Source: an uncultured Candidatus Saccharibacteria bacterium (GTDB lineage: Bacteria > Patescibacteriota > Dojkabacteria > J137). From it: DNA of 64,000 nt. A program made the translations under genes and the position numbers. Within the stretch, counting starts at the first letter, position 1; the number at the start of each line of letters is the position of its first letter. The notes beneath the pieces are model-generated. The model saw only the letters and a list, made by a program, of their open reading frames with translations, searched no databases and was not told where the DNA came from. Location: contig OZ246402.1 of NCBI GenBank assembly GCA_965230975.1, positions 573,009 through 637,008 on the forward strand. The letters run 5' to 3'. This document shows positions 63 through 11,676 of the stretch, in pieces.

Positions 63-91
63 TTGCAAAATTGTTTTGGTTAAACTATAAT
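63..91 (+). promoter_or_regulatory. sigma70-like promoter upstream of the tRNA-Gly repeat locus
   Basis: TTGCAA (63-68), 17-nt spacer, TATAAT (86-91); first tRNA-like repeat begins at 111. Confidence 0.5.
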
Positions 92-110
92 TACCATACC
101 TCAATAATAT

Positions 111-337
111 GCGGGTATAGTATATCGGTTATTTAGAGTGTGCTTTTAAGCACTTAGAACAAGGCAATTACCTTGCTCGCAATAACCGAAGCTAGAACAT
201 TTAAAAAGTGCGGGTATAGTATATCGGTTATTATTTTAAAGTAGCTTTAGCTACGATAAGATTAAGTCAATTTCTGATAGAAAAAATAACCGTTAGCAGA
301 ACATTTAAAAAACGCGGGTATAGTATATCGGTTATTA
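111..337 (+). repeat. array of tRNA-Gly 5'-half copies separated by ~50-nt unique inserts
   Basis: GCGGGTATAGTATATCGGTTATT at 111-133 and the 25-nt version at 210-234 match the first 23/25 nt of the tRNA at 314 exactly. Conserved AATAACCG-NN-AGC(T)AGAACATTTAAAAA at 181-207 and 285-311 precedes copy 2 and the real tRNA. Period is 99 and 104 nt. Confidence 0.85.
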
Positions 338-385
338 TGACAGTTTTCCAAACTGTAGAGGGGGGTTCGATTCCCCCTACCCGCT
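314..385 (+). tRNA. tRNA-Gly (anticodon UCC)
   Basis: Cloverleaf by hand: acceptor GCGGGTA/TACCCGC, anticodon stem ACAGT/ACTGT with 7-nt loop TTTCCAA (UCC), T arm GGGGG-TTCGATT-CCCCC, discriminator T, no encoded CCA. Close to E. coli glyT as I recall it. Confidence 0.9.
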
Positions 386-495
386 TTTTCTTTATTTCTT
401 CAATTCTGGCAATCATTTAGTTTATACTACTAACAGTCTGCTCGATCAGATTCTAAAAATGTAGTAAAATTTTCACAATATTTAGTAGTATTAAA

Positions 496-1251
496 ATGAA
501 TAAGTATAAATTGTTGGTTCTTGATGTAGATGGAACCCTAGTAAAAGACACTTCTCAAGTGATTTCACCTAGAGTTATTGAAGCAATAAAATCACTAACA
601 GGTAAAATAACTACTATTCTTTGCACTGGTAGATCACTTGAGGATCTAGATCAGATAATACCTTTATTAAATTTAGAGAATTCGTATAATGTAATTGAGA
701 GTGGGTCTTCGGTTCTAAGTCCTGGGTTAAATATTGAATTTGTACGCTCAGTTGATCTAATAGATGCAAAAAGAATGTTTAATCTTCAGGGTTCACTTAT
801 AAGTAATTTTAGTATTTGTGTAGATGGAAACTGGAGATATAGCCTGGACAATATAGGAGACAATAATCATATTACTACTGTGACCTTTTATTTTGACGAT
901 CCTTCTAAAAGTGACGAAGTAATTTCTTATTTTAATGAGTTCAAAGATAAATATCATATGGCAATAGGAACTCAGTGGGGAAATCCTGAGGGGAGACAAT
1001 TAATGATTACACATAAAGATGCATCTAAGGAGAAGTCTTTGGAGTATGTTCAAAATAAATTGGGGGTAACAATTGAAGAAACCGTATGTATTGGAGATAT
1101 GCCAAATGACTTGCCTATGTTCAGAAGATCTGGATTGAAGATTTGTATGGGAAATGGTGATCAAAAACTTAAAGATGCCTCAGACTTAATAGTAAAAAGT
1201 ATAGATGAAGATGGTGTGGCAGATGCAATAGAAAACTATATTTTGAAATAG
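496..1251 (+). CDS. HAD-superfamily hydrolase, Cof-type (IIB) phosphatase
   Basis: 251-aa ORF; motif I LDVDGTL near the N-terminus, motif IV GDMPNDLPMF near the C-terminus, cap insertion between them. Confidence 0.8.
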   Translation: MNKYKLLVLDVDGTLVKDTSQVISPRVIEAIKSLTGKITTILCTGRSLEDLDQIIPLLNLENSYNVIESGSSVLSPGLNIEFVRSVDLIDAKRMFNLQGSLISNFSICVDGNWRYSLDNIGDNNHITTVTFYFDDPSKSDEVISYFNEFKDKYHMAIGTQWGNPEGRQLMITHKDASKEKSLEYVQNKLGVTIEETVCIGDMPNDLPMFRRSGLKICMGNGDQKLKDASDLIVKSIDEDGVADAIENYILK

Positions 1252-1253
1252 TT

Positions 1254-1285
1254 GGTTCGAACTTCGTACACTAACCCGCTTTTCT
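1254..1285 (+). other. degenerate remnant of a tRNA-Gly 3' end
   Basis: GGTTCGA (1254-1260), then 13 nt, then ACCCGCTTTT (1274-1283). This mirrors T-loop GGTTCGA (364-370) plus acceptor/trailer ACCCGCTTTT (379-388) of the tRNA at 314-385. Confidence 0.45.
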
Positions 1286-1423
1286 ACTAAGATCAATTTC
1301 ATTTAATTCCCACATCTTAATTAAACATCCAAGTCCATACTCTTTATATCTTGAACTAATCTAGTTATTTGCCCCACTAGTAGAGTACATGTTATCATCG
1401 GCTAATAAATTTGAAATATATTT

Positions 1424-2005
1424 ATGGATAGTCAAAATTTTACCCTTGCAATACGTACTAGGTTAGAATCTACCGAAGAGAGAAAAAAATCATGCAGTGA
1501 AAGGTATGATTATTATAGACTAAGGTTGATACCAACAGCACAGGCATTTTTAGCTTGTTTAGGAGCAGATGAACAAACAATACAAAGAATTAAGTCGTTA
1601 TTAGAAAATAGGGAATCGGGCATAAAGATGATTGAAATAGCCTCTTTATTAACTACAATGCAACATAAATTACCTAGATTACTACAATCAGCTTATAACC
1701 TAGACGAGAAGTTAGCTTACGAGGTGAAAGATGAGATATTGGAAGTATATGACAAGTTAATAGCTGCATTCACTGCATCTCAAGAATTAAAAAAATTTAC
1801 TAAGAATCCAGAAAAGATTAAATCAATTGTGAGGGCTTATTTACTTATACTATCAGCGTATAACGAGTTTATGAGTGAGATCCAATTAGCTCAATCATTA
1901 AATGAATTGGTACCAGGACTTGGAGAAAACTTTCTTAGTCATTACAATAATATTGTAGGTAAGATAGTAGGAACCATTCCACTTGGCGATGCTACAGAAG
2001 GATAA
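1424..2005 (+). CDS. hypothetical protein (helical)
   Basis: 193-aa ORF, no recognisable motif. Confidence 0.55.
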   Translation: MDSQNFTLAIRTRLESTEERKKSCSERYDYYRLRLIPTAQAFLACLGADEQTIQRIKSLLENRESGIKMIEIASLLTTMQHKLPRLLQSAYNLDEKLAYEVKDEILEVYDKLIAAFTASQELKKFTKNPEKIKSIVRAYLLILSAYNEFMSEIQLAQSLNELVPGLGENFLSHYNNIVGKIVGTIPLGDATEG

Positions 2006-2132
2006 CCTCGCATAATGAAATTAATTTGGTTTAATAAGTTCTTCTAAGGGTATAGGTAACTAATGAGTAGATTATTATTATAATTGTTTCCATATTCTCG
2101 AAATAATATTCCCACTCCGCTATAATAATTGA

Positions 2133-2621
2133 ATGGAACTAATCCAAATAACAACACAAGACCTTGCACAAAAAGCTTCGGACTTTTTATCTACCTACAA
2201 TGCTTTTGAAGACTCGAAAGATTGGAACGAAGAAGAGGTAAGACATTTAGTAGAAACACCATTTAAAGCACTAGGAAACTTAGATTACTATGGGTGGATA
2301 ATGCTAGAAAATGAAAAAGTTATTGGATATATAGACTTAAGACGACACGAATTTGCGGATGGAGGATATTATTCTGATTGGTTCGCAGTTCATAAAGACT
2401 ATAGAGGAAAAGGTATAGGAAGCAATATGCTATCTGAAGTTGAAAAATTCGCAAAATCAATCAATGCAAGGTACATATTAATAGAAACAGGAGATATTGA
2501 TTTTTATATAAGAACAAGAAATTTCTACGAGAAGAACGGTTTTAAACAAGTTGGACATATTCCCGAATACTATTATAAAAATTGGGGAATGTATATTTAT
2601 CAAAAGATGCTAATAGTGTAG
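2133..2621 (+). CDS. GNAT-family N-acetyltransferase
   Basis: 162-aa ORF; acetyl-CoA-binding segment HKDYRGKGIGSNML and C-terminal YEKNGF. Confidence 0.8.
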   Translation: MELIQITTQDLAQKASDFLSTYNAFEDSKDWNEEEVRHLVETPFKALGNLDYYGWIMLENEKVIGYIDLRRHEFADGGYYSDWFAVHKDYRGKGIGSNMLSEVEKFAKSINARYILIETGDIDFYIRTRNFYEKNGFKQVGHIPEYYYKNWGMYIYQKMLIV

Positions 2622-6704: not shown

Positions 6705-7166
6705 ATGGATAGATCATACGGCCCAGGGGGGATGCAAATTTCTAGACATTGGAGATTAAACAGTCAAAGATACGGTTTAGAAGGAGTAAGGTATCAAGAT
6801 GGAGGTGTAAGTTTGCAAAATAAAAGAAGTGTTGATTACTTGCCAATTAATCGCATAAAATTCCCAAGCGAGTTAACAGATATAGTTGCTCAAGAATTTA
6901 TGCTGTATCCAGAAGATGTAAAAATCCTATTAAATCTTTTGGCTAAATGCATAGAAAGTGGTTATTCGACTATCGAAGAAATTAGCAAAATGCCTTTCTT
7001 GCAAAGAAGAGGGTTAGATATAAACATTGAAGACTTAATAATTTTTTTAAGCGAGATTGGTATTTTAATGATTAATAATAGTAGTGAAGAAGGTTTGAGA
7101 ATATTGGCAGTTATTAATAATGTAGCGTTATCCGAACTTAGTGAAAATAAGCAGATAGAACCTTAA
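6705..7166 (+). CDS. hypothetical protein
   Basis: 153-aa ORF 5 nt after pepF. The N-terminal RHWRLNSQRYGLEG resembles DUF35-type N-termini but lacks the zinc cysteines. Confidence 0.5.
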   Translation: MDRSYGPGGMQISRHWRLNSQRYGLEGVRYQDGGVSLQNKRSVDYLPINRIKFPSELTDIVAQEFMLYPEDVKILLNLLAKCIESGYSTIEEISKMPFLQRRGLDINIEDLIIFLSEIGILMINNSSEEGLRILAVINNVALSELSENKQIEP

Positions 7167-10719: not shown

Positions 10720-11676
10720 CTAGTTTATTCCAAATATTATTGCTACCTCGGTGATTAATAATGCGATATAAAGTCCAGTTAGCATAAAACCTTCGGTTCG
10801 ACTAACTTTTTTACCAGTCCAAGTGGCAACTCCAAACATTATTAAGGTTAATAATAAAATTACAGTGGATGGAATTATTGCTATAAAGCTATCAATTTTA
10901 ACGCCACCCGCCATTATTGCCAGTAATCCTAAAATGCCTGGGTTTACGCATGCGCTTCCAAAAAAATTACCTAAAGCAAGCGCTTCGTTATCTCTATTCT
11001 TTTTTGAAATTGCTAAAATTGTAAGCTCGGGTAAGTTTGTCCCAATTGCTAAAACTAAAACTCCAATAACCGCAGGAGAAATAGAAAGTATTAGTGCCAG
11101 ACTTTCTGCTAGCTTAACAGTCATTGAAGATGAAATTAGAAGCAAAACAATACCAATACTTGCTTTCCCAATAAGTCTAGATAGCTTTTTAATATTAATA
11201 TTTGCATGTTTTTTTAAAGCTACCTGATTAAATTTTCTATTAAGATAAGCAATAAAAATAAAATAACCACCTAATAAAGCAATCCCTTCGGTTATTGAAA
11301 TATACTTATCTAAAATCGAAATTACCATAAAAGTAATGAGTCCAACTCCCATTAAAACCTCTTTCTCTTGAAATCTATTTTTAAATTCTAATTTGCCGTA
11401 CTTAACTGCAGATAAACCAATAACTAAAGTTAAAAGTACTGTTGTAGCACCAATTAAATTCCCAACAGAAAGTTCCGGTAATTCCTGGCTAGAGAGTACA
11501 GATATAGATATCTCGGGTAAAGATGTAATAATGCTTAAAACTACAAACCCAGTAAAAAATTCGCTTACATGAAGTTTCCTAGAAAGAAAAACAAAAGAGC
11601 CTTCTACAAGCTCTGCGGATTTAACTAAAATTAACAAAAAAAATAATAACGCACCAACTATACCTAATACTTCCAT
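10720..11676 (-). CDS. Ca2+/Na+ antiporter (CaCA family, YrbG-like)
   Basis: 318-aa polytopic ORF with duplicated alpha-repeat motifs (SLPEIS...GNLIGATTV and GTNLPELT...GNFFGSACVN). Confidence 0.8.
   Translation of the reverse strand: MEVLGIVGALLFFLLILVKSAELVEGSFVFLSRKLHVSEFFTGFVVLSIITSLPEISISVLSSQELPELSVGNLIGATTVLLTLVIGLSAVKYGKLEFKNRFQEKEVLMGVGLITFMVISILDKYISITEGIALLGGYFIFIAYLNRKFNQVALKKHANINIKKLSRLIGKASIGIVLLLISSSMTVKLAESLALILSISPAVIGVLVLAIGTNLPELTILAISKKNRDNEALALGNFFGSACVNPGILGLLAIMAGGVKIDSFIAIIPSTVILLLTLIMFGVATWTGKKVSRTEGFMLTGLYIALLITEVAIIFGIN

Follow-up and report, generated by a model that had tools for sequence, protein, structure and literature searches.

This locus raises the question of why a bacterial tRNA gene should be preceded by copies of its own 5′ end. 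The DNA analyzed, called the window here, is a stretch of 64,000 nucleotides (nt) of contig OZ246402.1 (assembly GCA_965230975.1, positions 573,009 to 637,008 of the forward strand) from a genome of Candidatus Dojkabacteria, a lineage of the candidate phyla radiation (CPR). It carries one tRNA gene, a tRNA-Gly(UCC) at positions 314–385 (plus strand), and upstream of it two units, each starting with an exact copy of the first 23 nt of that tRNA. We favour, at somewhat short of an even chance, the reading that both units descend from a tRNA, are structured and belong to the 5′ leader of the precursor of tRNA-Gly(UCC), where they would act in cis on its folding or maturation. The more general proposition, that they form a selected, co-transcribed, tRNA-derived structured leader, appears likely.

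The tRNA-Gly(UCC) gene was called by ARAGORN, which reported no other tRNA gene in the 64 kb, and it matched Rfam family RF00005 with 62.7 bits; its CCA end is not encoded. The sequence GCGGGTATAGTATATCGGTTATT occurs as exact matches at 111–133, 210–232 and 314–336 (the first 23 nt of the tRNA), and the second copy is longer (25 nt, 210–234). In dinucleotide shuffles, even with ≤3 mismatches allowed, no match to this 23-nt copy was found. An initial annotation, made from the sequence alone, had described the tRNA, the copies at 111–133 and 210–234 with their spacings of 99 and 104 nt, and a repeated block at 181–207 and 285–311 before copy 2 and before the tRNA. The ARAGORN run and a repeat search bore out all of this, the block falling within a 54-nt repeat family (181–234 and 285–338, 87% identity) that consists of the AATAACCG..AGAACATTTAAAAA block and the 5′ copy. 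The locus sequence is identical across four independent Logan assemblies, which excludes an error of assembly. On its upstream side the locus adjoins a divergently oriented HAD hydrolase gene (minus strand, start at ~position 15), so that further units upstream of unit 1 are excluded.

Unit 1 (111–188, plus strand) represents the canonical module, which folds as follows. The unit begins with the tRNA 5′ copy (111–133). Helix P1 (126–133/181–188) is formed by the D-loop copy CGGUUAUU ((C)GGUUAUU, tRNA nt 16–23) and the conserved strand AAUAAC(CG). An internal loop of UA/GC (TA at 134–135, GC at 179–180) is followed by P2 (3–4 bp), by P3 (5–7 bp with a 3–4-nt loop), by an A-rich junction with a UARAA motif (154–159 in unit 1) and by the 5-bp hairpin P4. 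The 8-bp CGGTTATT/AATAACCG pairings (126–133/181–188 and 225–232/285–292) and the hairpins GTGCT-TTTA-AGCAC at 140–153 (P3, 140–144/149–153) and GTAGC-TTTA-GCTAC at 241–254 are present as initially annotated. Two elements of unit 1 were absent from that annotation, namely the second 5-bp hairpin CAAGG/CCTTG at 160–175 (P4, 160–164/171–175) and the inner 3-bp stem GAG 136–138 / CTC 176–178 (P2). The 15 nt 5′ of P1 are single-stranded or form a small hairpin (possible P0, 114–126), since tRNA nt 4–16 (GGUAUAGUAUAUC; 114–126, 213–225 and 317–329) make up a quasi-palindrome of 6+6 bp around a G·G. The copies can therefore pair with one another, the tRNA's own 5′ part included, or form a hairpin next to P1.

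We scanned one genome per species for exact matches to the tRNA 23-mer and found it in seven metagenome-assembled genomes (MAGs), labelled as five Candidatus Dojkabacteria, one Doudnabacteria and one Saccharibacteria. The module lies between promoter and tRNA-Gly(UCC) in three other MAGs, at loci L005 (one unit), L011 (one unit, with A for G at nt 1) and L009 (a unit truncated where the contig ends). A sister strain, L166 (a Logan SRR8831206 contig reached via the 90% protein cluster of a neighbouring gene), carries both units, so that the data reached hold five module-bearing genomes, the window included, a small comparative set. L166 is ~99% identical to the window from −433 to ~+1250 and unrelated past the Cof-HAD gene (compared over −433..2300). 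Its substitutions cluster in linker 1 and in a ~22-nt replaced patch (~92–113, leader 0 and the first 3 nt of unit 1), its P1 3′ strand reads AAUAAUCG (a G-C to G·U change), and its unit 2 and tRNA are identical to those of the window.

Among these loci the module measures 70–76 nt (counted to the conserved CGC: window, 70 nt; L005, 73 nt; L011, 76 nt), the invariant core of the 5′ copy spans nt 4–23, and in four genomes the copy stops at nt 23 on its 3′ side. An A-rich linker of 20–23 nt separates the 3′ strand of P1 from the following +1 in all five cases. Flanking genes differ among distant loci (M16 peptidase, glycosyltransferase, DUF1801/DUF5655, GNAT), and hence the module stays with the tRNA and not with the gene neighbourhood. 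A plain promoter–tRNA layout was found in four loci (L006, L008, L010 and L012-type). Exact-pattern scans of metagenome contigs returned only plain tRNAs of various lineages, and those of viral contigs only chance matches or phage tRNAs, with no further units in either.

Folded independently, unit 1 and the units of L005 and L011 share one minimum free energy (MFE) and centroid structure, with z = −3.1 to −3.8; in unit 1 the MFE structure equals the centroid (−20.3 kcal/mol, z = −3.84). The L009 unit has the same MFE fold, although weaker, with a centroid that lacks P4 (z = −0.44). MAFFT and RNAalifold misaligned the hairpins of the raw units and recovered P1 and P2 only; hence a covariance model (CM) was built from a single sequence and the alignment was made with Infernal. 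The CM from unit 1 alone (R1) detected exactly four full units and none elsewhere in the window or in 13 further loci: unit 1, its training sequence (E = 4e-26), the units of L005 (E = 6.7e-9) and L011 (E = 1.5e-8), and unit 2 of the window (37.1 bits, E = 1.5e-6). A four-sequence model (R2), with which unit 2 scored 84.5 bits, yielded the same outcome over 18 sources.

In the CM-guided alignment of the four units, 97.6% of pair cells held standard pairs, and 12 of the 21 pairs had changed on both sides (P3, 5/5; P4, 4/5; P2, 3/3). None of 500 column shuffles matched any of five pairing measures, and when the 3′ partners were slid by 1–3 columns, pairing fell to 38–52%. Pairwise identity was 97.8% in nt 1–23 (the tRNA 5′ copy), 93.8% in the P1 3′ strand and 45.2% in the module interior. 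Because the alignment behind the pair counts had been fitted to the structure, we added an alignment-free test in which P1 was enforced and an inner stem of at least 3 bp had to enclose exactly two simple hairpins of at least 4 bp. This topology was the MFE structure of unit 1, L005, L011 and L009 (four of the five units) and of 0.8–2.0% of dinucleotide-shuffled interiors. G·U pairs in P1 of L166 and in the folds or alignment of L009, L011 and unit 2 would be tolerated only if the plus strand RNA folds, and therefore point to plus strand RNA as the folding molecule. As judged from these comparisons, which rest on three distinct lineages plus duplicates, the module interior is under selection for RNA structure. 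Comparison of relatives for helix covariation, already envisaged in the initial annotation, gave a divided outcome: P2, P3 and P4 change on both sides, and the 8-bp closing helix described there (P1) is real but is the sole helix that never covaries.

The annotated sigma-70-type promoter, TTGCAA-17-TATAAT at 63–91 (plus strand), was confirmed; it has 10/12 consensus matches, is the sole plus strand promoter-like site in 1–420, and is read as driving units 1 and 2 and the tRNA. Its context, TATAATTAC(C)AT(C)ACC, is homologous to promoters that abut tRNA-Gly in the module-less loci L014 and L006, and the same context stands before the module in L011 and L166. The longer promoter–leader context TATAATTACATCACC... 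likewise lies directly before the tRNA in L014 and L006 and before the unit in the window, L166 and L011. In L011, as in the window, the sole plus strand promoter-like site is upstream of the module, and neither promoter-like nor terminator-like sites were found on the plus strand between units and tRNA in the window, L005 or L011. We infer from this that the tRNA is made only by read-through and that the units form its 5′ leader; their co-transcription is thus deduced from where the promoter lies and from the lack of promoters and terminators inside the stretch. Recurrence upstream of tRNA-Gly(UCC), compensatory changes and promoter position all fit the options of structured small RNAs or of tRNA-like 5′ leaders that the initial annotation had listed.

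Where the module came from is indicated by its size and register. A point not raised in the initial annotation is that unit 1 up to CGC (111–180) has 70 nt, about the length of a tRNA, and that its two hairpins keep the register of the anticodon and T arms: P3 and P4 have their 3′ strands at unit positions 39–43 and 61–65, where the anticodon- and T-stem 3′ strands of a canonical tRNA lie. Both R1 and R2 align a genuine tRNA over its full length, with the anticodon arm on P3 and the T arm on P4. The unit of L011 ends in TAGCCGC, the tRNA in TACCCGC. Length, register and ends are possible signs of descent from a tRNA-Gly; within the interior, no similarity to the tRNA sequence can be detected. 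The initial statement that the copies have no 3′ acceptor strand or T arm and are not tRNAs stands insofar as ARAGORN and Rfam are negative, but has to be amended, since the units are tRNA-sized with arm remnants in register.

In the simplest history, a tandem duplication of tRNA-Gly would have left an upstream copy that retained the promoter and was later remodelled. That copy would have kept tRNA nt (1)4–23 and lost its D-stem (nt 24–25 UA in place of AU), while its anticodon and T loops shrank, leaving P3 and P4 as short hairpins. What had been the 3′ acceptor strand would have been recruited to pair with nt 26–29 (P2), and the trailer just 3′ of the former tRNA end (AAUAAC(CG)) to pair with the D-loop copy (P1). 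A compact three-way junction would have resulted, its 5′ tail either free or folded into a hairpin.

Unit 2 (210–292, plus strand) is homologous to unit 1: the ends of P3 (241–245/250–254) and its UUUA loop are common to both, and 11 of 16 positions agree across P4. Its P1 (225–232/285–292) can be extended by TTTT/AAAA, and the P4 region (255–280) has decayed. Unit 2 folds with z = −3.76, its MFE topology deviating and two P4 pairs broken. Taken together, the data on both units suggest that (i) the units probably descend from a copy of a whole tRNA-Gly; and (ii) unit 2 is probably a later duplicate of unit 1, produced by unequal crossover in this lineage, with P4 decaying. The term "repeat-spacer-like array" of the initial annotation is consequently misleading, since only one unit occurs in the other MAGs and unit 2 is a duplicate confined to this lineage.

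Short leaders and linkers join these parts. Leader 0 (92–110, plus strand), between the −10 box and unit 1, contains AATAAT, weakly complementary to GTTATT; linker 1 (189–209, AAGCTAGAACATTTAAAAAGT) and linker 2 (293–313, GTTAGCAGAACATTTAAAAAAC) are A-rich, 21 nt long and on the plus strand, and linker 2 is the immediate 5′ leader of the tRNA. We also observed that leaders upstream of +1 carry AAUAA(U/C/A), complementary to the D-loop GUUAUU, in the window (102–110), L011 (~7000–7008) and L014 (~2756–2762). Its presence in the module-less L014 hints that a leader:D-loop pairing may predate the module, with a chance expectation that is not negligible in AT-rich DNA.

Several familiar identities were considered for the units and rejected. 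They are not tRNAs: ARAGORN made no call, RF00005 gave no match in 1–500 even at E ≤ 10, the loops have 4 and 6 nt, the D-stem is broken, and for unit 1 the cloverleaf-like fold (GCGGG/CUCGC, −16.4 kcal/mol) is 5.4 kcal/mol worse than the P1–P4 fold (−21.8 kcal/mol). The acceptor pairing is not conserved either (CTCGC, GTCGC, GCCGC; GAA at nt 1–3 in L166). A CRISPR (clustered regularly interspaced short palindromic repeats) array does not fit a repeat that is a tRNA 5′ end, a single unit in other genomes, spacers that are homologous and structured, and ten scanned genes without cas. Known riboswitches, ribozymes, T-boxes and group I introns were dismissed, as only tRNA reached the Rfam 15 gathering score in the window, L005, L007, L009 and L011; throughout the 64 kb no other family did, and at E ≤ 10 positions 1–500 gave only spurious sub-threshold matches for cis-regulatory families. 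The module lies outside every Rfam family and is classed here as a probable tRNA-derived structured RNA of a tRNA precursor. No supporting feature or Rfam match was found for the repeat RNA of a type III toxin–antitoxin system. A split or intron-containing tRNA would call for a second T-arm-like GGTTCGATTCC, and neither this nor another ARAGORN tRNA occurs in the 64 kb; the window locus gave no bulge–helix–bulge (BHB) motif or group I intron match. A miniature inverted-repeat transposable element with CGGTTATT as terminal inverted repeats was rejected too, since the boundaries do not match what one insertion with duplication of its target would leave. Positions 11065 and 11289 carry further CGGTTATT sites; these fall within a coding region and match by chance.

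How a structured leader might act on the tRNA is suggested by the strand AAUAACCG, an anti-D-loop strand flanked by two partners of identical sequence: upstream lies the decoy copy and, 36 nt downstream, the real D-loop. One promoter would transcribe the unit or units, the 20–23-nt A-rich linker and the tRNA, and RNase P cleavage at the tRNA +1 would detach the leader. During transcription P1 would form first and keep AAUAACCG off the real tRNA, which would stay free to fold; opening of P1 would let the leader trap the D-loop or elbow that RNase P reads, and maturation would be blocked. What most calls for an explanation is that P1 and nt 4–15 stay fixed in sequence while all other parts covary. 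Under this three-segment proposal the sequence of P1 would be frozen because both partners must match one strand and one of them belongs to an essential tRNA. In equilibrium folding P1 reached 0.96 and 0.56 in the two window units and 0.71 in L011. The leader's role would probably be to control or protect the folding and maturation of the downstream tRNA; that this decoy or switch mechanism in particular is correct is possible, though on balance doubtful. Quite improbable, to our mind, is its strongest form, in which the module would be the sensor/decoy half of a folding switch that gates elbow formation and the RNase P cut in pre-tRNA-Gly, and in which maturation would depend on the action of temperature, a ligand or some factor upon the three-way junction.

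Further contacts within the precursor are conceivable. The quasi-palindromic copy of nt 4–15 gives a possible second contact in cis, with the tRNA's own 5′ part. In whole-precursor equilibrium folds, which ignore folding kinetics and tertiary contacts, the tRNA 3′ acceptor strand preferred the upstream copy over its own 5′ strand (0.88, 0.71 and 0.57). Acceptor competition is not the conserved feature, however, because L166 has GAA at nt 1–3 and L011 has A1. By these models the leader is able to interfere with tRNA folding, a property that a regulatory or quality-control element could exploit.

A number of observations weigh against a functional leader of this kind. P1 never covaries, with 7 of its 8 pairs invariant and one changed on one side only; neither the P1 pairing nor the pairing of the anti-D-loop strand with the tRNA (B:C) has evolutionary proof, and the latter amounts to ~0.01 in equilibrium folding. 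The switch leaves the identity of nt 4–15 unexplained. Junction nucleotides are weakly conserved (the UA/GC internal loop, UARAA in the P3–P4 junction), and so there is no sign of a ligand pocket. P4 of unit 2 has decayed, and the 5′ edge of the copy is lost over nt 1–3 in L166 (GAA) and at nt 1 in L011 (A). The module is absent from the Dojkabacteria tRNA-Gly loci L006, L008, L012 and L014 and is therefore dispensable. The sample is limited to a truncated unit, a sister strain and four full units, which represent three distinct lineages; the window alone supplied two of the four units aligned, and the alignment was fitted to the structure by the model.

Decay of P4 in unit 2, the edge erosion and the patchy distribution of the module are what one would expect if the units were neutral, decaying pseudogenes of a tandem tRNA-Gly duplication whose hairpins are simply inherited tRNA arms. 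Their tRNA size, the arms in register and a P1 without covariation also suit such an origin; the units would have persisted because precise removal is rare, and their 5′ 20–23 nt would have been kept by short-tract gene conversion from the tRNA. We nevertheless consider this unlikely. P2, P3 and P4 are wholly different in sequence between genomes, and nearly all of their pairs are kept, mostly as Watson–Crick pairs, with 12 two-sided changes. The topology arises in ~1% of shuffles, as against four lineages, and repeated gain of new pairings such as P1 and P2 is not expected of a tRNA in decay. The nt-23 boundary and the 20–23-nt linker are fixed although the interiors are only ~45% identical, and over that distance a 20-nt tract could not sustain conversion at its own edges. 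Compact and stable folding of the module would equally suit a trans-acting, tRNA-derived small RNA (sRNA) that rides on the tRNA promoter and on RNase P processing, and that acts via its 5′ tail (nt 4–16) or mimics the tRNA-Gly 5′ region for a tRNA-binding protein. Its tail GGUAUAGUAUAUC is invariant and self-complementary (6+6 bp) and can pair with any copy, the tRNA-Gly 5′ part among them, and functional RNAs cut from tRNA operon spacers are known, e.g., from the 3′ external transcribed spacer (ETS) of E. coli leuZ. Yet no target complementary to the 5′ tail was found beyond chance in the 64 kb, the constant linker and the obligatory position before the tRNA suggest a relationship in cis, and stability of the released unit is an assumption of this explanation. 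As the main activity we regard it as rather unlikely; it overlaps with the favoured cis-acting leader and does not exclude it, and a separate role in trans may exist alongside the one in cis.

Direct copies of a tRNA segment may also be products of DNA recombination, either attachment-site (att) repeats that remained after mobile elements aimed at the tRNA-Gly 5′ part had integrated, accreted and decayed, or a small non-autonomous element, with the hairpins serving as DNA recognition structures. The neighbourhood would allow for it: the region past the Cof-HAD gene is strain-variable, the HAD gene lies elsewhere in 86%-identical relatives, and the leader 0 patch is replaced in L166. Nearly all helix pairs are Watson–Crick, so that pairing alone fits a DNA structure too, and tandem att remnants are known at the tmRNA gene ssrA of Dehalococcoides (PMC3146451). 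The resemblance to these remnants lies in tandem direct repeats of a piece of a stable-RNA gene beside the intact gene. They differ from the units in that, in those islands (PMC3146451), it is the 3′ end that is repeated, and kilobases of element DNA carrying an integrase separate the copies; here the 5′ end is repeated in ~100-nt units, no integrase was found and the interior structure is conserved. Integrase, recombinase or transposase Pfam domains were not detected within ~10 kb on either side in the window genome, or among the neighbours in L005, L009, L011 and L166, i.e., at any unit-bearing locus. The repeat corresponds to tRNA nt 1–23/25 and not to the 3′ portion, and the 3′ 16 nt of the tRNA occur once within ±600 nt at every locus. 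The remainder of the window and ~100 kb of other CPR loci contain no copies of the unit, and no phage, plasmid or viral-contig match was obtained, a BLAST search with the unit region included. An element would measure only ~76 nt, its repeat would have to start at the mature tRNA +1 and end at nt 23 in four genomes, and the G·U pairs fit plus strand RNA only. We therefore rate recombination as highly improbable; the scars of repeated recombination that the initial annotation had offered are disfavoured by the lack of an integrase nearby, by the fixed nt-23 boundary and by structural selection on the interior.

Returning to the cis-acting leader, its closest relatives in kind are non-tRNA segments that are co-transcribed with tRNAs and delimited by tRNA-processing cuts, such as the t-elements of plant mitochondria, the E. 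coli 3′ETS-leuZ and the sponges in internal transcribed spacers (ITS). Some of these spacer RNAs descend from tRNAs. The t-elements retain an acceptor/T-arm mimic that RNase P and RNase Z recognise, and ETS sponges act through unstructured seed matches to sRNAs. We know of no t-element or ETS/ITS sponge that carries an exact copy of the 5′ part of the neighbouring tRNA; compared with t-elements, the units are without an acceptor/T-arm mimic. With tandem tRNA duplicates or pseudogenes the units share the position and orientation of an upstream copy behind a shared promoter, the size of a tRNA and 23 identical nt. They differ in being undetectable as tRNA or pseudo-tRNA, in a conserved P1/P2 fold made from the D-loop and the former acceptor strand, and in a fold that shows compensatory evolution and not decay. 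As in riboswitches and attenuators, AAUAACCG stands between two identical partners, and the decoy helix closes a three-way junction like a riboswitch P1. In contrast to them, there is no Rfam riboswitch match, no strongly conserved junction core and no expression platform with a terminator or ribosome-binding site, and the object regulated here would be the folding of a tRNA, which would be unprecedented. By analogy, the closest match to its mode of action would be a structured external transcribed spacer, or else a processing element derived from a tRNA, in either case with strands competing as in an attenuator.

Full-text literature searches found no description of such a module. Split, permuted and intron-containing tRNA genes are known from archaea and algae (PMC3218864; PMC3978253), and group I introns from tRNAs of Patescibacteria (PMC13011429); the survey of the latter mentions neither tRNA-Gly nor leaders of this type. 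Split and permuted tRNAs likewise encode a tRNA 5′ fragment apart from a full gene (PMC3218864; PMC3978253). Unlike split or intron-containing genes, the window has no matching 3′ half, BHB motif or group I intron match, and its intact tRNA needs no splicing.

If functional, the module would be a case of a duplicated tRNA gene exapted as a differently folded cis-element of another tRNA's precursor, and would add a novel class of structured RNAs to the CPR bacteria, a poorly understood group whose tiny genomes leave little room for junk. It would also be a concrete example, open to testing, of how a decoy 5′ copy controls tRNA maturation, or safeguards its quality, at the RNA level. The CM built here can be used across all CPR genomes to define the family. 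If neutral, the units would be a clean example of tandem tRNA duplicate decay constrained not to poison the folding of the downstream copy.

The tRNA-Gly neighbourhood is a rearrangement-prone accessory region without detectable integrase. The Cof-type HAD gene (496–1251) sits between the L21/L27 ribosomal protein genes and ftsW in 86%-identical relatives, and the block of small genes that follows the tRNA up to ~4800 (GNAT, DUF1801 and hypotheticals) differs between strains and genomes. None of the homologues found for the Cof-HAD and DUF1801 genes adjoins tRNA-Gly, so synteny is already lost at 86% protein identity. A protein search with the upstream HAD gene returned no close homologue.

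An antisense (minus strand) promoter-like site, TTGGAA-18-TATACT, lies within every tRNA-Gly(UCC) gene (window 322–351, L005 1983–2012, L011 7119–7148). It is made of the anticodon loop and nt 10–15, and the 5′ copies retain only the −10-like TATACT; the site is probably coincidental.

A rearranged gene of another type was observed at L007 (JBDTVZ010000001.1, minus strand, ~944–1186), where a perfect 72-nt tRNA-Gly(CCC) is interrupted after the anticodon by 172 nt. No group I intron match was found there in Rfam, and neither the L007 5′ exon region nor the long leader of L010 showed significant folding. Within the 172-nt insert lies an entire tRNA-Gly(UCC); a 10-bp leader/trailer helix (TGTGAATACA/TGTATTCACA) lengthens its acceptor stem, and the ends of the insert pair as GCCTGCC/GGCAGGC. 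A gene for a PF05635 "23S rRNA intervening sequence protein" lies ~120 nt downstream. L007 thus has the matching 3′ exon of a split or intron-containing tRNA gene and is a locus distinct from the window; it points to rearrangement of tRNA-Gly genes as a theme of the clade. Were the folding switch true as well, Dojkabacteria would run a non-canonical, RNA-structure-driven processing of rearranged tRNA-Gly genes.

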